Shown here in pieces: positions 6,262-24,817 of a DNA stretch of 32,000 nucleotides (positions within the stretch are counted from its first letter, which is position 1; each line of letters begins with the position of its first letter). The notes below the pieces were generated by a model. It was not told the DNA's origin and did not search any database. It was given only the letters and a program-made list of their open reading frames with translations. The DNA is taken from NCBI RefSeq assembly GCF_964030745.1, contig NZ_OZ034918.1, positions 360,001 through 392,000 of the forward strand, in the 5' to 3' direction. Made by a program: the position numbers and the translations under genes. This stretch comes from Candidatus Saccharimonadota bacterium. GTDB lineage: Bacteria > Bacteroidota > Bacteroidia > Cytophagales > Amoebophilaceae.

Positions 6262-7392
6262 TCACTTTAATATAGCAACAAGCACAGTTATGTCGTCTGG
6301 CTTACCTCTAGGGGTTTTCGAATTTTCGTATGCTTTTACTGTTAGAGCACGCGCGATATCCCTTGCGATTTCTTGTATAGACTTTTTAGAAGGATCACAT
6401 CCGACGACGGTGTCAGAGACAGTTGTACGAATTTTTTTGGAACTGACGTTATCAGACAGACCATCTGTACCCATAATAACAATATCCTCTTGTTGTATTT
6501 CGAATGACAGAGAAGCACAACGATCTTTTGTATATTCGGCACAAGGATATTCTGCTTGACCACTACCCATTACTGCTTTACGTTTTTTATATTCTTCATA
6601 TTCTTTTTTATTAACACGCATTGATATTGCACAAGGCCAATTCTCACCATGCATTGTTTCTTCAGATTTATAAGGATCCTCATAACCATCTTTATCCTTG
6701 CGCAAGAGCATCATGGAAGAGTCCCCTATATTGACAACTACGCACTTACCTGCATGGTAATCTATCTTTACCAAATTAAACGTGGTCGCAGCCCAATTCA
6801 ATGCATATGGCTCACCATTGTTATTTTCTTGACTTAGCTTATATTCGTCTTCTGTCAACTTTCCTTCCTTGAGTTCTTTCTCATTTCTTTCTTTCTCCGC
6901 TTCGAGGCATTTTTTTAACCAATCTGGACATATCTCCTTACAAGCACTATCAATCTCTTCTTCTGTGGATTCAGGATTAGATGGTTCGATAATCTGCCCG
7001 ATTAGTTCGCGAGATAAAGTGGCTGAGTCTCCCCAAGCCCCTCCAACACCATCTGCGACAGCGAGTATGGCTTTACTCTCTTGTACATTAAAAGCAGCAG
7101 CATCTTGTCCAAATTGACACACGGATTTATTTTCTGCCATAACCTTTATGTCACTATCCTGTCCGGATTCATCGACTCCAGCTATTGCTATAGCTCCAAC
7201 CCTTACACAACCAGTAGTAGTTGGTCTGATATCGACACCTGAAGAACATGCACCCTGAGCATCTTTATTTCCATCTGGATACAAACCAGATGCAGATAAA
7301 ACCTGACAGCTGAAATGCAAAAAGCAAAGAAGCATTAGCCCTGCAAGGTACATGGAAACTTTTTTAATATTAAAGGATGATAGAGACACCAT
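6262..7392 (-). CDS. Secreted or lipid-anchored PP2C-family Ser/Thr protein phosphatase
   Basis: 376 aa. PP2C motifs: FGQDAAAF, AVADGVGGAWGDSATLS, VNIGDSSMMLLRKD, IMGTDGLSDNVS, GKPDDITVLVAIL. The N-terminus is a hydrophobic signal ending in FLHFSC (lipobox-like). There is an internal Lys/Glu-rich insert. Confidence 0.8.
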   Translation of the reverse strand: MVSLSSFNIKKVSMYLAGLMLLCFLHFSCQVLSASGLYPDGNKDAQGACSSGVDIRPTTTGCVRVGAIAIAGVDESGQDSDIKVMAENKSVCQFGQDAAAFNVQESKAILAVADGVGGAWGDSATLSRELIGQIIEPSNPESTEEEIDSACKEICPDWLKKCLEAEKERNEKELKEGKLTEDEYKLSQENNNGEPYALNWAATTFNLVKIDYHAGKCVVVNIGDSSMMLLRKDKDGYEDPYKSEETMHGENWPCAISMRVNKKEYEEYKKRKAVMGSGQAEYPCAEYTKDRCASLSFEIQQEDIVIMGTDGLSDNVSSKKIRTTVSDTVVGCDPSKKSIQEIARDIARALTVKAYENSKTPRGKPDDITVLVAILK

Positions 7393-7404
7393 ATTGAGTA
7401 ATTA

Positions 7405-7452
7405 GTTTAATTAGGAGTTTAATTAGGAGTTTAATTAGGAGTTTAATTAGGT
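7405..7452. repeat. Tandem repeat, 12-bp unit GTTTAATTAGGA x4 (last unit ends in T)
   Basis: Units at 7405-7416, 7417-7428, 7429-7440 and 7441-7452, preceded by a degenerate partial unit at 7396-7404. The array begins 13 nt upstream of the PP2C start codon (7390-7392). Confidence 0.95.
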
Positions 7453-7639
7453 TAAATACAAATAAGTAAGATTACAGCAACTTTGTTAGCATGCCTATTT
7501 TCAAAAAGACATCTTTAAGTTAAACTTTAAATTAGATAAATGCCAGAAAATTAACTACGAAATTTTTTAAAAAAAAGCAAATAGACCAGTTGGTAATTTA
7601 ACTAATTATTCAGCATACTCACACCATTGCCTGAACAGA

Positions 7640-7740
7640 CAATGGCGCGGACTTAAGAGATAAATATTATTGACTATTAAATAGAACAGTATTTTTTACA
7701 CGGAGTATTGGTATACGCAGTACTTATGGCCACCGATAAA
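7640..7740 (+). repeat. 101-bp dispersed repeat, copy 2
   Basis: About 95% identical by eye to 5111-5211. Confidence 0.8.
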
Positions 7741-7774
7741 GGAATGCAGCCACAATAGCCTTTCTTATTATTGT

Positions 7775-7985
7775 CAGCCCTGCGTCTCCTTCGATAAAAA
7801 ATGGCGCTCTAGTAAAACACGAACACCTGAGCGATATCTTTTTCAGCGGATTAGAAAATCGTCTGTGTGAAGCCCGCTTGCGGGCTGAGTTCACGATTTT
7901 CCCGCTGAAAAAGATATCGATTCAGCTATTTACTATCGGGCCAGACTTTTTATCGAAGGAGATATGGGGCCCAGACACAGGCGTG
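7775..7985. mobile_element. Hairpin MITE (GCCCGC-core family), full copy of about 211 bp
   Basis: Nested inverted repeats: TCTCCTTCGATAAAAA / TTTTTATCGAAGGAGA, GATATCTTTTTCAGCGG / CCGCTGAAAAAGATATC, and a central AGCCCGCTTGCGGGCT. Near-identical to 26466-26678. Confidence 0.75.
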
Positions 7986-8124
7986 TAATGAAGTTTCTTA
8001 AAAAACTAGAAAAAATGCGTTTTCAACCACAGTGCTGAGCAAAAAAAATAAGACAAATTCCTTAAACCCACACCATTGCCTGAACAGATACCTTTTTACA
8101 GGCAACGCCCTTTTGTCACAAATG

Positions 8125-8581
8125 TGGAGCTGGAGGGAATCGAACCCTCGTCCGAACAAGAAAACCACAACGCTTTCTACATGCTTAGTCACTGTTTATT
8201 GTCGGCACAACCAAGGTCAGCAACACACCTGATGTTACGCTTATGCGCGCTTATAATTTATGCCACCATCACGCCCCTGATGGCACTAGCCCTATGCATC
8301 GATGCCCCTTATGCTGACCCCATAGAACAAAAACCAGCGGGACAAATTCCCCTTAATCTATCGATTAAGCAGCTAGAAGCATTGCACCTTCTTCTCCTTC
8401 TTCATCCTCGTTTTCATTTTTTCTTCGAGTTTGAGAAGCAAAGGTAACGCTCCAGCGGGAATTGTTGATTACAGCTAAGTTGCCGTTTATCTACTATGTA
8501 AGTTTTATATGAGAGGTAATACTTACAACACCTCGCATGCTTACATTGGATTTAACCTTCCCGTCAATTCCAGTCAACCCC
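8125..8581 (-). ncRNA. ssrA: tmRNA (SsrA), about 457 nt
   Basis: On the reverse strand:
- The 5' end is GGGGTTGACTGGAATTGACGGG.
- The 3' end is GGACGAGGGTTCGATTCCCTCCAGCTCCA.
- The acceptor stem GGGGUUG/CAGCUCC has a G3:U wobble, the Ala identity element.
- The conserved GTAAGCATGC is present.
- A PK1-like pairing is present (GAGGT/ACCTC interleaved with GTAAGT/ACTTAC).
- The tag frame ends ...CTA GCT GCT TAA TCG (..LAA*).
- CCA is not encoded. Confidence 0.85.
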
Positions 8582-8879
8582 AATGTGTTGTTAAATCCCT
8601 AAACAATATAGGTACATGCCAATTTAATACTATTTATTCGCACCACAAAATACTAAACAATGCTTTCTTGTAAAGAAGTTTACAACTATAAGCGTTCTTT
8701 TCTAAAACGATACGTGGCATCATTTGGATTCTACCATAGATTTACATACCTTGCCAAAGCAAATCTGTAAGAGATTACTCCGTATTGGAGTGTGCTCCAG
8801 GGGGCTAGTGCAACAGAGCCCCTAGCAGAAAGAAATATAAAAGCAAAAGTTTTGTTTATCTATTAAGATTATTCATACT

Positions 8880-9038
8880 ATGAAAAGAACATTTCAACCA
8901 TCACTTAGAAAAAGAAGCAATAAACATGGTTTCAGAGAACGTATGTCCACTGCTAATGGCCGTGCAGTATTGGCCAGAAGGCGTGCCAAAGGAAGGGTCA
9001 AATTAACCGTTTCTGATGAACCTAGGCACAAGCGCTAA
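8880..9038 (+). CDS. rpmH: 50S ribosomal protein L34
   Basis: 52-aa ORF, below the ORF-track cutoff: [52 protein letters not shown]. Canonical L34, directly upstream of rnpA. Confidence 0.95.
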
Positions 9039-9101
9039 TAGGCTTTTTTGAAGCGCACCCATGCTTTTCAAAAAACCTAATATTGTCTTTTGCGACTGGA
9101 T

Positions 9102-9506
9102 ATGGGACAAAACAACCTGCCCAAGTGTCATAGACTAACCAACCGGAAGTATATAAAAATGCTTTTTCAGGAGGGCAGCGTTGTTAAGTTATACCCCTGC
9201 ACTGTCTTTTACCTACAAAAAAGCAAAGAACTGTTTTTATGCAATCAAGTTCTTTTTACTGCCTCTAAACGGCACCTCCGTTCTGCTGTACAGCGTAATA
9301 AAGTGAAGCGCTTGCTGAGAGAAACCTACCGTACCAATAAAAATATACTAGAAGATACTTTAGCTACCACCCATTCTAAATTTGTCTTTTTAATAGGATA
9401 TGTGTATACTGGAAAAAAGGAAGAAATCCACTATCCTATTTTAAATAAGACTGTTATTAAATCGTTGCAACATTTTAGCGCTTTGCTAAATAAAGAACTA
9501 GTTTAG
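9102..9506 (+). CDS. rnpA: Ribonuclease P protein component
   Basis: LPKCHRLTNRKYIKMLFQEG...ASKRHLRSAVQRNKVKRLLRETYR is the RnpA RNR motif. It follows rpmH. The track ORF starts at TTG 9090, but the first ATG at 9102 is preferred. Confidence 0.85.
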   Translation: MGQNNLPKCHRLTNRKYIKMLFQEGSVVKLYPCTVFYLQKSKELFLCNQVLFTASKRHLRSAVQRNKVKRLLRETYRTNKNILEDTLATTHSKFVFLIGYVYTGKKEEIHYPILNKTVIKSLQHFSALLNKELV

Positions 9507-9611: not shown

Positions 9612-12600
9612 ATGCAAACACATTTTTCAGCAATATTGACAGGACCGGCAATGCATATGGACAGTCTTATTTTTATTCTTTTCTTATTGATTAGCCTGCT
9701 TGTTGGCATCCGTTCCACTATGCATGCTACTATCCAAACTACTCGCTTTGCTACCGCTCATATTATAACGGCCATCTTAGCCATAACCTATGGTGGAGAA
9801 GTGTTGTGTTATCCGTTCCATATAGGTGGCTTACTAAGCTTGACAGGCAGTGCGATGAGCTATTTTATAATAGGTACGCTGCTGGCACATCGCTTGCATC
9901 TTTTTTTAAATAATCGTTCAGTCGCAGAAATAATGGGGCAACTCTATGGCAACTCTATTCAAAAAATTGTAGCCATATGTGGTATATGTTATAGTGTTGC
10001 CATAGCTGCCATACAGTGCAAACTGTTGGGAATGGCGCTATGCTGGTGCTTTGCTATGCCAGCAGACTATAGTCTGCTTATATCCATGTGCTTGATAGTT
10101 TGTAGTATTGGATCTAATACTATCCAATCGTTAGCACTGGCCAGTGTGGTGCGTTGTGCTGCTTTTGGTCTATTGTTGCCCACCATCGCTTGGGCTTTAT
10201 GGAAAGGTATGGTAGCGCAATATAATGCTGATCCAATCAACCTTGCACTAGCCGTTAAGCGCTCCTGGCATAACTTGATCCATAGCCATGGTACGCCACT
10301 GGGCTGTATGGCTTATTTTGTCGCTTTTGCCATACCTGCTTTCTACCCTGCTCAGGTAACACCTATTTTAATGGCCCAAAATGCCACCCAAATAAAACGC
10401 TCCTTGAATGGAGCTGGTTTTTTCTCATTAAGCATCAACTTACTTTTGCTATGGGTTGCGTTGTTGGCACAACACCATTCTGATAAATGGATGCTATCGG
10501 CCATTGCTCTTGCTGGTGGTTACACAGGGTTAAAAGGGCTCTTTATGGTAGGTGTTGCTGCTTTAACCATCTCTACAGCAGGCGCAAACTTGCATGCCGC
10601 CACGGGTTTAATGACCAATGATCTGCCAAACCTGTTTAAAGGGACTAAAAAGCCCATTATCTGTCAGATTATAGTAGGGATAATGGCATTACTTCTTGTA
10701 CAATACACTCAAGGACAAATGATGTGGAAGGCCATTGTTTTATTTAAATCCGTTGTAAGTCTACCATTACTACTTGCTTTAATTGGTATTTCCTTGCATC
10801 CATACGCCGTTTTAATGGGTATGCTAGCAGGTGGCATAACTGGTATGGCTCGATTCTATTTTGTACCTCATGAAGGTGTGCATAGTTTACTCCCAGCCAT
10901 TATGATGAACCTACTGACTATGATGGGTATGCAACTTTTGCAAAGCAAGCAAAAAACAAATCCACCCGACATAACCAATGGATTAACAGAAGAACCAATG
11001 GTTACGCCACCATCATTATGGAGGCGGTGGTGTAGATATATTTGCATAAAGCACTTTAATCTTTGGAACTATCTACAATTACCTAAGGACAGTTTACCTT
11101 ACATACTTTTTAGCTTTTATATACTCCTAACAGGTTATGGTGCTTTGTATACCTTTTCCAGCAACCTGATATGGGATACTAGATTAGAGGCACTTATCCT
11201 TTTCCCCAGCCTCTTTGTTGCCACATTTTTCTTAACCTACACTTCTATTTCACCCCCACCATATGTTCGTAAAGTTGCTGCAATAATATGGCCTTTAAGC
11301 CATATTTATTTTCTTTTTTTGATAGGTACTGGTATGGCTATGCTGAGCAAATTTGCTCATTTACATGACATCATTTTGATATTCAACCTCTGCTTATCTA
11401 TATTTATTAGCCCATTGATCGTGCTATTACTGGGATGTGTATTGAGCGCAGGAGTAGTCTGGGTCATCCTCCACTATATGGATTGCAATAACACATTGAT
11501 AACCTGCTTCTTAGATCTAAACCTAAATATCATCTATGCAATATTGATGTTATTCGTTTTCGTTGGTGGCCTGCTATACTACAATCGAGCCTTAAACAAA
11601 CGTTTAGCTATCATACAAGCGTTAACCAACGAACAAGAAGAGCAAAATGGAAGGCAATTTTTTAATAAACAACAAGTAGAAGCACTGGCTTACGAAAGTA
11701 GCTATATCATATCTCAACTGAATCATCAGTTGATTCGATTAGAACAGTCGAAAGAAGCATTCTTTGCTTATGCAGATCAAGCCATTAGGCTAAAAAAATA
11801 TTTTAACAGCATTTTTCAACACCTAAAACACAATCTTCATTTAGTGACCAATTGGATTAGTATTGATCAACTATTAGCTCAATGTTTCGATTCCATAAAA
11901 ATTAGCAATATATATGATACACCATATGTAATGATCCATACCAAACACCTCTACATACAGTGTGCTATAGAAAATATCAAAAATCTAATTATCAGCAGTT
12001 TATACTCCTGCAGCACACATGAATCTTTACATAGTACCCAAAGAAAGGATATCTATATGTATATAGATGATACACAATTAGGCTATCGCCTTACACTTTT
12101 ACAAGGAAAATTACAAAAAATCAATGCAATCAGCTTTGTCATCACCACTGCCATACAGCCACCTGCCATACGTCCGATCTACAAAGTAGCAGAAATGGCA
12201 GACATTCAAATCTTAGATGAAAATAAAGAAAAAATAGATTCTGAGAACCAACATATTGTACATGCACATTATGGTTACTATGAGCGGCTTTGTTCTGAGG
12301 CAGAAATCACTCATTTATATGTAATACCTGTAAATGTGAAAGAGATCACTAAAGCATTTGCTACGCTTTCGCCTGTTGTCTATACACAAAAGATGGTATT
12401 AGACCCAGTCAATATGAAAGAAGAAACAGCTTTTCTAGAGCGGGTTAAAAAGAAAAAAGGCATCCATCTTGATGCAGTGATGGATGCATTACAACTCATT
12501 AAAGTGTATTATACCACACAAAGGAGAAAAACAGGAGAATTATTTTATTTACACCCGATGGCAGTAGCCTCTATTTTACTGACTATAACGGACGATTCTA

Positions 12601-12995
12601 GTGTGATTATTGCTGGATTAGTCCATGACATCATACAAAACACACCCTTTACAGAAGCAGGCTTAACAACCCTATTTGGCGCTTCTATTACACAAATTGT
12701 ATTGACTGCAGCCTGCTTAGAAAAATTATTACCCCACCAAAAAGAAGATTATGCCACCTATATCAAACAGATTATGCGTAGTAAAAATCATAATGCCCTG
12801 CTGGTTAGGCTGGCAGACGTGCTACATAACGCAAGAACCATTTCTGGACATACTATTGAAAAACAGATAGAAAAATCAAAACTCATTCAAACATTTTATC
12901 TACCATTAGCCACGCAATTACAACTAGTCAATATAGCCCACGAGCTGGCATTACATAGTGAAAAGGTATTACACCTGGCTATGGTAAAGGATTAG
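9612..12995 (+). CDS. Large polytopic membrane protein with C-terminal SpoT/Mesh1-type HD domain (putative membrane sensor; ED dyad replaced by QN)
   Basis: 1127 aa.
- About aa 15-460: many TM helices with a sodium:solute-symporter-like flavour (RSVAEIMGQLYGNSIQKIVAI).
- About aa 490-640: a second TM block.
- About aa 650-930: a cytoplasmic coiled-coil and alpha/beta region.
- About aa 960-1120: aligns by eye with the RelSeq hydrolase domain. RKTGELFYLHPMAVASIL...GLVHDIIQNT...LVRLADVLHNARTI matches RKSGEPYIIHPIQVAGIL...GFLHDVVEDT...LVKLADRLHNMRTL. Confidence 0.8.
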   Translation: MQTHFSAILTGPAMHMDSLIFILFLLISLLVGIRSTMHATIQTTRFATAHIITAILAITYGGEVLCYPFHIGGLLSLTGSAMSYFIIGTLLAHRLHLFLNNRSVAEIMGQLYGNSIQKIVAICGICYSVAIAAIQCKLLGMALCWCFAMPADYSLLISMCLIVCSIGSNTIQSLALASVVRCAAFGLLLPTIAWALWKGMVAQYNADPINLALAVKRSWHNLIHSHGTPLGCMAYFVAFAIPAFYPAQVTPILMAQNATQIKRSLNGAGFFSLSINLLLLWVALLAQHHSDKWMLSAIALAGGYTGLKGLFMVGVAALTISTAGANLHAATGLMTNDLPNLFKGTKKPIICQIIVGIMALLLVQYTQGQMMWKAIVLFKSVVSLPLLLALIGISLHPYAVLMGMLAGGITGMARFYFVPHEGVHSLLPAIMMNLLTMMGMQLLQSKQKTNPPDITNGLTEEPMVTPPSLWRRWCRYICIKHFNLWNYLQLPKDSLPYILFSFYILLTGYGALYTFSSNLIWDTRLEALILFPSLFVATFFLTYTSISPPPYVRKVAAIIWPLSHIYFLFLIGTGMAMLSKFAHLHDIILIFNLCLSIFISPLIVLLLGCVLSAGVVWVILHYMDCNNTLITCFLDLNLNIIYAILMLFVFVGGLLYYNRALNKRLAIIQALTNEQEEQNGRQFFNKQQVEALAYESSYIISQLNHQLIRLEQSKEAFFAYADQAIRLKKYFNSIFQHLKHNLHLVTNWISIDQLLAQCFDSIKISNIYDTPYVMIHTKHLYIQCAIENIKNLIISSLYSCSTHESLHSTQRKDIYMYIDDTQLGYRLTLLQGKLQKINAISFVITTAIQPPAIRPIYKVAEMADIQILDENKEKIDSENQHIVHAHYGYYERLCSEAEITHLYVIPVNVKEITKAFATLSPVVYTQKMVLDPVNMKEETAFLERVKKKKGIHLDAVMDALQLIKVYYTTQRRKTGELFYLHPMAVASILLTITDDSSVIIAGLVHDIIQNTPFTEAGLTTLFGASITQIVLTAACLEKLLPHQKEDYATYIKQIMRSKNHNALLVRLADVLHNARTISGHTIEKQIEKSKLIQTFYLPLATQLQLVNIAHELALHSEKVLHLAMVKD

Positions 12996-22874: not shown

Positions 22875-24181
22875 TGAGGCCGTTGCAATAGACCTTTACG
22901 ATTTGCCATAAAAAGTATCTTTTTATTTTTTAGAAGAAGGTAAAAAAAGGTTAAATTCTATTGATTTTTTTAGGTATTGATGCTTAAAACTTTTAATAAT
23001 ATTGTGTATGTCGCTCAAGCAAACTAAGCAATTAAGTTTTTCAGATATTTCCGCCAATAAGCGTAAGTGCAAACACACTTTCTTTGATCAAATCAACAAG
23101 CTAGTTAATTGGTCAGTAGTAGAAAAAGCACTCCGATTACATTATCCTAAAGGTTTACGTTTATCAGGCAAACCGGCCTATAGTCCTCTGCTTCTATTCA
23201 AAATGCTATTGCTACAGACGTGGTATGGCTTGAGCGACTATGCAGTCGAAGAAGAAGTGAATGATCGTATCACTTTTAGCAGATTTTGTGGTATTTCGAT
23301 GGATAGTTCTGTTCCAGATCATAGTGTACTAAGTAGATTTAGAACTACCCTTACAGAGAAGAATGCTTTAGAAAAGTTATTGCATATCATTAATAATCAG
23401 CTATCTGATCATGGTGTATTGGTTCAAAACGGTTCAGCAGCTGTAGATGCTTCTATTACCCCTACCCCTAGACGCCCTAAAGGTAAAAAAAGCTACGATC
23501 TGCATGAAGATGGAACCATAACCACAGCTGAAAGTTATCAAAAAGGAGTAGATCCAGAAGCAAGTTGGATAAAAAAAGGCCATCATCTCTACTATGGCTA
23601 TAAGCGGCATGTTCTTGTGGAAAGCAAAGAGGGGTTGGTGCTAGCCGTAGGTACCACAAAAGCATCTAGTCATGATAGTGGGCATTTACAGGTATTATTG
23701 GATAAAGTAAGGCTAAAATCAGGCAGCAGACTCTATGCAGATAAAGGCTATAGCGGGTCGCCCAACGAAAATTTACTAAAGAAAAAGAAGTTAAAATCAG
23801 CTATTCAGAAAAAAGGGGCTAGAAACAATCCTTTATCACCCACTGCTAAACGGTTTAATAAATTAGTATCTAAAACGCGCTATAAAGTAGAACGGGTATT
23901 TGGAAGTATTAAAAGTTGGTTCCGTAGCTCAGGAGCCAGATATATAGGCCTTGCTAAAACCCATACGCAACATGTTATGGAGGCAATAGCCTATAACTTA
24001 TATAGGTCCCCAAACATCATATTAAGAGGTATCTAGGGGAATGGTGTGTCCAAAATAGATTGAAAATGACTAAAAAATCAGTAAATAAATAGTTTTATAC
24101 CACTATAACATCAAATATGGCAAGGAAATAACCCTGGAAGATTAATCAAAATTATACCTTCAACCTATCACAACGGCCTCA
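22875..24181 (+). mobile_element. IS5-family insertion sequence, 1307 bp, apparently intact
   Basis: Terminal inverted repeats TGAGGCCGTTGCAATAG (22875-22891) and, as the reverse complement of 24165-24181, TGAGGCCGTTGTGATAG (15/17 match). The element is flanked by direct GTG (22872-22874 and 24182-24184). It carries one full-length transposase ORF. Confidence 0.85.
23008..24036 (+). CDS. IS5-family DDE transposase
   Basis: An N-terminal DUF772-like segment (GKPAYSPLLLFKMLLLQTWYGLSDYAVEEEVNDRITFSRFCGI) and a C-terminal DDE_Tnp_1-like segment (ADKGYSG...YKVERVFGSIKSWF...ARYIGLAKT...AYNLYR). Confidence 0.9.
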   Translation: MSLKQTKQLSFSDISANKRKCKHTFFDQINKLVNWSVVEKALRLHYPKGLRLSGKPAYSPLLLFKMLLLQTWYGLSDYAVEEEVNDRITFSRFCGISMDSSVPDHSVLSRFRTTLTEKNALEKLLHIINNQLSDHGVLVQNGSAAVDASITPTPRRPKGKKSYDLHEDGTITTAESYQKGVDPEASWIKKGHHLYYGYKRHVLVESKEGLVLAVGTTKASSHDSGHLQVLLDKVRLKSGSRLYADKGYSGSPNENLLKKKKLKSAIQKKGARNNPLSPTAKRFNKLVSKTRYKVERVFGSIKSWFRSSGARYIGLAKTHTQHVMEAIAYNLYRSPNIILRGI

Positions 24182-24696: not shown

Positions 24697-24817
24697 TGTT
24701 GACGCCATTGGTTGAAGGCTTACGATGAAAGAACTCTATTGCATTTTTAAATTATAATTCATATTATCCAATATGGAACTTGAAGTCAAGTATAATGCCT
24801 TGCATAGGATAAGAATT

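Follow-up and report, generated by a model that had tools for sequence, protein, structure and literature searches.

A Cardinium membrane protein joining an SLC5-type transporter, a degenerate kinase core and an alarmone-type HD domain that is most likely a pseudo-hydrolase

What is a hydrolase domain of the Rel/SpoT kind doing at the end of a membrane transporter, and is it still capable of hydrolysing an alarmone? The question is raised by an open reading frame (ORF) of 1127 amino acids (aa) at 9612-12995 (+) of a 32,000-nucleotide (nt) stretch of DNA (contig NZ_OZ034918.1, positions 360,001 to 392,000, assembly GCF_964030745.1), which at its full length is called the window here and which belongs to the ordinary chromosomal DNA of a bacterium from the Cardinium group (Bacteroidota, Amoebophilaceae). 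A preliminary description of the window, made from the sequence alone, had divided the product into four parts: a symporter-like membrane block, a second membrane block, a cytoplasmic region and a C-terminal domain of Rel/SpoT type. All four were recovered by Pfam, Foldseek, a family profile and the assignment of transmembrane (TM) helices. The gene is a chromosomal, rnpA-linked Cardinium ortholog of a large SLC5-type 'transceptor' family, and the practical message of what follows is one of caution against annotating it as a (p)ppGpp hydrolase.

The C-terminal domain (12477-12992, +) is an RSH-type (Rel/SpoT-type) HD domain. It matches Pfam HD_4 over aa 959-1103 (E=2.8e-16; 60.1 bits against a cut-off of 27.2) and the hydrolase part of TIGR00691, spoT_relA (E=2e-28), the latter far under the full-length cut-off, as solely the HD part is present; membership of the alarmone-type HD family, proposed earlier by eye, thus stands on profile evidence. 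No match to the synthetase domain PF04607 was found in the window protein. Against solved structures, the HD domain gave E-values of 3.7e-19 for S. aureus Rel, 4.3e-16 for RelSeq and 4e-7 to 6e-7 for Mesh1, and it aligns end to end, at 28-33% identity, with Rel hydrolase domains of known structure. The residue-for-residue correspondence with the Rel/SpoT hydrolase that had been claimed holds for the domain as a whole and breaks at two catalytic acids: where Rel has HDVVEDT, a form of the canonical HDxxEDT, the window protein has HDIIQNT (H1005, D1006, Q1009, N1010 and T1011; 12624-12644, +), so that the catalytic Glu-Asp (ED) pair is replaced. In the papers on the RelSeq and Mesh1 structures this pair is said to activate water. 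The replacement recurs throughout the ortholog group, with HDxx(Q/K/R)N in 11 of 11 rnpA-type Cardinium orthologs. The HDxxED motif has been described as crucial to hydrolysis and is absent from the inactive domain of RelA (PMC8012599). The D81G change of Caulobacter SpoT was set aside as evidence on the aspartate of the pair, since the paper on it leaves unstated to which conserved Asp it corresponds.

Much of the remaining active site is retained. The predicted Mn2+ ligands H981, H1005, D1006 and D1069 (H53, H77, D78 and D144 in RelSeq) are invariant in the orthologs, as are the nucleotide-contacting residues R972, K973, N1073 and T1076. Given the loss of the ED pair alongside the retention of all four metal ligands and the nucleotide contacts, the HD domain is most likely a pseudo-hydrolase, predicted still to bind metal and nucleotide with little or no turnover; alarmone hydrolysis by the window protein is doubtful, because (Q/K/R)N stands in place of ED in every Cardinium ortholog. 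Simple decay is argued against by the pattern of conservation, since mean identity among the Cardinium orthologs is highest of all domains in the HD domain (69%, versus 52% in the SSF domain).

The Gln-Asn (QN) state is a trait of the rnpA-linked ortholog group rather than common to all Cardinium, as two paralogs on plasmids of Cardinium cDFar read LLHDVVEDT...LADRLHNLRT, with the ED pair intact. On these plasmids (CP101109.1, locus L004, 384-1133; CP101108.1, locus L005, 1-1131) the ED paralog lies beside one or two NUDIX hydrolase genes, in divergent orientation; some NUDIX enzymes degrade (p)ppGpp, and the cDFar genes may be a second alarmone-related neighbour of the paralog. Across the wider family, the full H..HDxxED..D..N signature is present in 62 of 92 HD-bearing sequences, HDxxED being kept in Amoebophilus proteins too, and about 19 further representatives among these 92 are without even the metal ligands. 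These last are full-length proteins. With the ligands gone from so many, hydrolase competence has been lost repeatedly within a multi-copy family. Representatives without metal ligands include P0029, P0035, P0036, P0040, P0047, P0048, P0050, P0054, P0155 and others, and P0035 shares a single 1.45-Mb contig of a 'Roseivirga sp.' metagenome-assembled genome (MAG) with the canonical P0020.

What, then, lies between the membrane and this domain? Three elements can be delimited: a DHp-like helical hairpin (aa ~656-742; 11577-11837, +) with 'SQLNHQLIRL' as the equivalent of the H-box; a degenerate CA (Bergerat-fold) domain (aa ~743-917; 11838-12362, +); and a linker with one helix (aa 918-955; 12363-12476, +), the helix of which (aa ~932-947) is also found at the N-terminus of stand-alone HD proteins of Rickettsiaceae. 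A separate model of aa 655-950, with a predicted local distance difference test score (pLDDT) of 71, consists of two long helices and an alpha/beta sandwich. A Foldseek search of the PDB with this model returned 234 matches at E<=1e-3, and all 50 of the 50 best listed are of the sensor-kinase DHp+CA type, among them ZraS (E=4.5e-9), RetS, HK853, CpxA, DivL and CckA. The sequence profile of the region gave weak matches to ThkA (E=0.044) and ZraS in the expected register, and Pfam HisKA and HATPase_c gave no match in the window protein.

The degree of degeneration becomes visible when the cytoplasmic cores of the fusions are aligned (with MAFFT) to those of true SSF-kinases. The H-box, NHE(I/L)(H/R)xPL in the true kinases versus 'SQLNHQLIRL' in the window, has N or D in place of its His in the majority of orthologs; in two the His is displaced by one or two residues, and from Amoebophilus-type proteins it is absent. 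The N-box, NLIINA(I/M)KY in the true kinases, reads 'NLIISSLYS' in Cardinium, with Asn changed to Ser. Both the G1 box (DxGxGIP) and the G2 box (GGRGxGLA) are gone from every fusion, and the motif that follows G2, VIEVHGGxI in the true kinases, has become 'I(V/I)xAHYGY', such that 'IVHAHYGY' in the window is a remnant of the kinase 'VIEVHGG'. This decay of the kinase boxes marks the middle region as a pseudo-kinase whose ancestors were true sensor kinases coupled to SSF. The earlier view of it as kinase-like, with neither a conserved phospho-acceptor His nor ATP boxes, is strongly supported by both Foldseek and the SSF-kinase alignment. At the position of the kinase phospho-acceptor, His705 (11724-11726) is present solely in the window protein, and its phosphorylation in cis is unlikely because the G1 and G2 boxes are missing. 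The Tyr of 'EALAYES' was considered as a DivL-like phospho-acceptor position and dropped, as MAFFT places the H-box at 'SQLNHQL'.

The membrane half begins with an SLC5/SSF (sodium:solute symporter) domain of ~13 TM helices (aa ~14-445; 9651-10946, +). The window protein alone gave no SSF match in Pfam; more distant homologs do match Pfam SSF (PF00474), and among SLC5 transporters of solved structure the family profile recovers CHT1 (E=3.7e-14) and SiaT (E=6.7e-9), together with SMVT, SMCT1 and NIS. In Foldseek, the AlphaFold2 (AF2) model compares with NIS, CHT1, SGLT and vSGLT at a target-normalised TM-score of ~0.6. On these matches, aa ~14-445 qualify as a predicted SLC5/SSS family member with a 13-TM LeuT-fold core. 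S321 is invariant, and S321/T322 align to the 'SS' pair of CHT1 'VMSSADS', which we take to be the SLC5 Na2 site. The domain is followed by a low-confidence, disordered cytoplasmic linker (aa 446-493; 10947-11090, +; pLDDT <50) and then by a second membrane block of six TM helices that belongs to no Pfam family (aa ~494-655; 11091-11576, +), giving ~19 TM helices in total. In the AF2 model, the final TM helix of the six-helix block runs into the long cytoplasmic helix of the DHp-like hairpin. For CAHE_0228 of Cardinium cEper1, a probable ortholog of 1118 aa, 20 TM helices were predicted by HMMTOP (Penz 2012 Table S4, PMC3486910).

The combination of SSF, pseudo-kinase and HD domains is far from unique to the window. 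A profile built from 14 full-length family members, searched against 1.84 billion representative proteins, gave 3130 matches at E<=1e-30, the best 150 all better than 1e-137, and among them are dozens of full-length fusion clusters (at 50% identity). Three classes can be distinguished: full-length proteins of 1080-1196 aa with SSF, six-TM, kinase-like and HD parts; proteins of ~925-970 aa in which SSF and the six TM helices are followed by genuine HisKA and HATPase_c (P0068, P0076, P0085, P0095, P0111); and proteins of ~920-1000 aa that lack an HD domain and have a degenerate kinase core. By its sequences, the family is derived from genuine sensor kinases of the order SSF, six-helix block, HisKA and HATPase_c. 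In one branch, the kinase core would have lost its ATP-binding boxes and conserved phospho-acceptor His and been kept as a dimerising transmitter; an RSH HD hydrolase domain would then have joined the C-terminus. By tblastn, paralogs were located on plasmids of Cardinium, and homologs on those of Rickettsia and Megaera/Megaira. A report on Cardinium cTPut describes 81 short fragments, annotated 'sodium:solute symporter / HD domain-containing protein', as repeats resembling miniature inverted-repeat transposable elements (PMC12039267). Being reported as repeat elements, these fragments suggest that the family, or pieces thereof, multiplies like mobile DNA.

Support for a partnership between the two halves comes from Rickettsiaceae, where they are encoded apart. 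The Rickettsia plasmid pREIP (locus L003, 4217-8703) carries a 981-aa SSF/pseudo-kinase protein, 36% identical over 711 aa to Amoebophilus P0017, and ~1 kb away a stand-alone HD_4 protein of 206 aa (42% identity to the HD domain of P0017 and 29% to that of the window), with a GNAT acetyltransferase gene between the two. In a Rickettsiaceae MAG (locus L006, 2483-6046), the gene for a 997-aa homolog converges on and overlaps that for a 193-aa HD_4 protein, with 42% identity to the HD domain of the Amoebophilus fusion. This locus, like L007, was one of the informative ones in a scan of genome contigs with generic HD motifs, which otherwise returned mostly ordinary Rel genes. Both stand-alone HD_4 proteins keep HDxxED. 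Judged by homology, the pREIP and MAG loci are a split version of the Amoebophilaceae fusion, of the Rosetta-stone kind, and such a fused-versus-split pair supports a functional partnership of the transporter/pseudo-kinase module with a small hydrolase. Pairwise bit scores of the Rickettsiaceae small HD proteins have medians of 127-130 to the fusion HD domains versus 112-127 to the best Rel HD domains, a marginal difference by which rickSpo is not clearly set apart from ordinary Rel HD domains; membership of the fusion HD domain in the rickSpo group is no more than plausible. The split form agrees with reports that RAGE mobile elements bear stringent-response hydrolase, synthetase and kinase genes together (PMC4316617), and that lateral transfer has distributed SLC5sbd and SLC5sbd+HK proteins across Rickettsiales, Amoebophilus and Cardinium (Driscoll 2017, PMC5615194).

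For a protein of such unusual composition, one must consider whether the long ORF is an artefact, that is, a chimera made in assembly or separate genes read through as one. This may be practically dismissed, as nothing was found in its favour: a database search with the window protein gave, besides one identical entry, ten orthologs of full length that share 50-75% identity with it, those with a name being from Cardinium endosymbionts, and the same architecture, at 1112-1146 aa, recurs in more than 10 independent assemblies, complete genomes included. Family members are collinear in alignment with all domains, and the gene order rpmH-rnpA-gene (rpmH 8880-9038 and rnpA 9090-9506, both +) is common to the window and two complete Cardinium genomes. 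Shared order and full-length orthologs together define a positional ortholog group, comprising at least 11 Cardinium-group assemblies, and an origin by assembly error or frameshift is accordingly rejected; the single ORF that the preliminary description had presumed is real. The ORF opens with an ATG at 9612 and ends with a stop codon at 12993-12995; ortholog starts coincide with M14 or M16 of the window protein, and the true start is therefore probably at 9651 (M14) or 9657 (M16).

How might these parts work together? The reading we favour, at about even odds (a probability of roughly 0.5), is a composite one in which the transporter relays its state to the HD domain, canonical family members use the relay to switch hydrolysis, and the QN ortholog binds its ligand without efficient cleavage, in a regulatory or sensing role. 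Under this mechanism, the binding of Na+ and solute and the SLC5 transport cycle would shift the six-helix block; the last helix of the block, continuous with the DHp-like coiled coil, would pass the movement to the pseudo-kinase; and the pseudo-kinase would reposition or gate the HD domain. In canonical members with HDxxED intact, (p)ppGpp hydrolysis would be switched by host nutrient supply, and the coupling of a solute signal to alarmone metabolism in these members is a reasonable hypothesis. In the QN ortholog, the HD domain would regulate or sense a ligand as a module attached to a transporter, which possibly still transports. A precedent for the transceptor reading is CbrA, an SLC5-kinase that both transports and signals.

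Several observations weigh against this composite reading. The intact metal ligands are compatible with residual or altered catalysis. Residue 1009 is variable (Q, K or R, and E in one decayed copy), a pattern that resembles relaxed selection more than a substrate trap by design. The quality of the full-length AF2 model is poor (pLDDT 63, predicted TM-score (pTM) 0.47), so the modelled helix continuity and the geometry between domains are only suggestive. The supply of alarmone is a further concern: nothing decisive on a Cardinium (p)ppGpp synthetase was found in the literature, nor any entry in the supplements searched, and there is no (p)ppGpp synthetase gene in the 32-kb window. Rel is documented for Amoebophilus (PMC3153485), not for Cardinium, and P0024, the best long-RSH match and a candidate for a Cardinium Rel, proved to be clostridial, with a search from it returning only Clostridia-like Rel. 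Lastly, a broken cytoplasmic half is seen in the Cardinium from Oedothorax gibbosus (complete genome OW441264.1, locus L086, 5100-6430), where the ortholog has frameshifts, an in-frame stop in 'LGY*LTLL', an insertion of ~220 nt and a 26-aa deletion removing D1069-H1072 (LADVLH), and where the 714-aa membrane/transporter half is still an open reading frame. As the pseudo-kinase/HD half has become a pseudogene there, one lineage at least can do without the output module. The catalytic motif of this decayed copy reads HDIVENT, and the persistence of E beside N hints that the D-to-N change preceded the loss of Glu.

This same genome, with its transporter half alone intact, speaks for a plainer view, in which the window protein is essentially a nutrient importer and the pseudo-kinase/HD tail a leftover being lost, with no signalling role in Cardinium. 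Also in its favour are the published annotation 'putative sodium/solute symporter', the expression of 12 of 12 sodium/solute symporter genes in cEper1 (PMC5698495; PMC3486910 Table S4), the retention of the S321/T322 pair and the family representatives that have lost even their metal ligands. Against it, the tail is intact and better conserved than the transporter in at least 11 orthologs spanning 50% divergence, and a neutral relic would not hold four metal ligands and the pattern RK..HP..HD..D..HN..T invariant; we regard the importer view as unlikely, if the foremost of the alternatives. Similar retention can be turned to the opposite purpose. Small alarmone hydrolases are promiscuous in substrate, and the QN variant could slowly cleave (p)ppGpp, or (p)ppApp or NADPH as Mesh1 does, under control of the transporter; the invariance of H981, H1005, D1006, D1069 and N1073, the standing of HD as the best conserved domain and its identity to solved, active Rel hydrolase domains would all accord with this. 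Yet what has been replaced is part of the very motif held crucial for hydrolysis (PMC8012599), the amide or cationic substitution is fixed across the group while paralogs of the same genus keep ED, and residue 1009 is itself not conserved, leaving continued activity a doubtful proposition. Less probable than either is the idea of the QN ortholog as a membrane alarmone receptor, a natural 'substrate-trap' tuning SLC5 uptake through the pseudo-kinase coiled coil. If it were true, the signal would run from cytoplasm to transporter, the reverse of CbrA, with uptake set by the alarmone level, and the canonical ED paralogs would do the opposite, degrading alarmone when solute is available.

The preliminary description had taken the fusion to be undescribed, and in this it was mistaken, as the fusion is already on record in Atkinson 2011 (PMC3153485), Brown 2018 (PMC6232779) and Penz 2012 Table S4, reported in passing and with its architecture not dissected. 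The first of these characterised Amoebophilus as "Rel[HS] + rickSpo[H] expansion, 15 RSHs", placing the 14 extra RSHs in rickSpo[H]; it covers Amoebophilus only and nowhere mentions a transporter. The second named "spoT ... sodium glucose cotransporter" homologs both for Amoebophilus and for Cardinium, and the third listed SSS proteins of 1118-1180 aa with 17-20 TM helices (PMC3486910). In Penz 2012, Mann 2017 and Selberherr 2022 the family is handled purely as Na/solute symporters of no known substrate, and the counts of "putative sodium/solute symporters" (19 in Amoebophilus, 12 in Cardinium) have been used in arguments over what nutrients are imported. Two of the 12 genes expressed in cEper1 are among the top-expressed (PMC5698495), and 10 of the 19 Amoebophilus genes are up-regulated late in the infection cycle. 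In the literature, no paper was found to note the pseudo-kinase core, the origin of the family in SSF sensor kinases, the Rickettsiaceae split or the loss of the ED pair. What is new is an ortholog group, probably crippled in catalysis, within a family already in the databases.

Among characterised systems, the nearest to the window protein are CbrA and CrbS. Like the SLC5/STAC kinases CbrA, CrbS and RpuS, also termed 'transceptors', it has an N-terminal 13-TM SLC5 domain and a cytoplasmic transmitter of kinase type, and for CbrA histidine transport has been demonstrated in addition to signalling (PMC7096432, PMC13022988, PMC9100948). Unlike CbrA and CrbS, it has a six-helix membrane block after the SLC5 domain, a kinase core devoid of G1, G2 and the conserved His, and an HD domain as output where theirs is the transfer of phosphate to a response regulator; neither a STAC nor a PAS domain was detected in it, STAC not having been searched with a model of its own. 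The SLC5sbd and SLC5sbd+HK proteins of Rickettsiales (PMC5615194) are direct homologs carried on plasmids and mobile elements, with no fused HD domain and with a small HD hydrolase as a separate gene at two loci. With the rickSpo small alarmone hydrolases, the fusion shares an HD-only RSH domain and the lack of a synthetase domain; unlike them, the window HD domain is the C-terminal tenth of a ~19-TM protein, neither small nor soluble, and is without the ED pair. The HD domain of RelA lacks the metal ligands as well as HDxxED and has the synthetase domain as its partner, unlike the window protein, which keeps the ligands and has no synthetase domain. RetS and DivL are kinase folds that signal without normal autophosphorylation; they are among the best structural matches to aa 655-950, yet are unrelated in sequence and have other inputs and outputs. 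Mesh1/HDDC3 has the same HD_4 fold as the window protein and is a far more distant match than the Rel hydrolase domains; unlike the window protein, it is soluble and has retained the ED pair. A parallel to the proposed pseudo-hydrolase is the RelA domain, likewise an RSH fold without HDxxED that has been reused as a regulatory element (PMC8012599).

The surroundings of the gene are those of a bacterial chromosome. Besides rpmH and rnpA, the window carries genes for ribosomal proteins, rimM, a PP2C phosphatase, fabG, fabD, exbB, gldK/M/N, a DDE transposase and uvrC. The phosphatase, a PP2C/SpoIIE-type Ser/Thr enzyme of 376 aa (6262-7392, -), lies ~2 kb upstream of the locus, and no evidence of a link between it and the transceptor was found. 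Between it and rpmH, the ~1.5 kb at 7400-8880 hold no convincing protein gene, the sole candidate being a 123-aa ORF of odd composition that starts with TTG (8076-8447). Further downstream, the DDE transposase ORF (DDE_Tnp_1/DUF772; 23002-24036) directly follows the gldK-gldN cluster for gliding and the type IX secretion system, and is itself followed by ORFs of 390 aa (24773-25945) and 376 aa (26752-27882) with no Pfam match.

For the biology of these symbionts, the consequence is that many of the "symporters" counted in Amoebophilus and Cardinium would be signal-transduction proteins composed of a transporter, a dead kinase and an alarmone-hydrolase domain. Two natural series are thereby offered to those interested in how RSH hydrolases are regulated: one runs from ED through QN to the loss of the metal ligands, and the other sets the fused form of Amoebophilaceae beside the split form of Rickettsiaceae. 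Obligate intracellular bacteria may thus possess a route by which host nutrient supply reaches (p)ppGpp without the classical ribosome-bound sensor, and a "symporter" family that is both abundant and highly expressed in intracellular symbionts may be reinterpreted as transporter-coupled signalling proteins.

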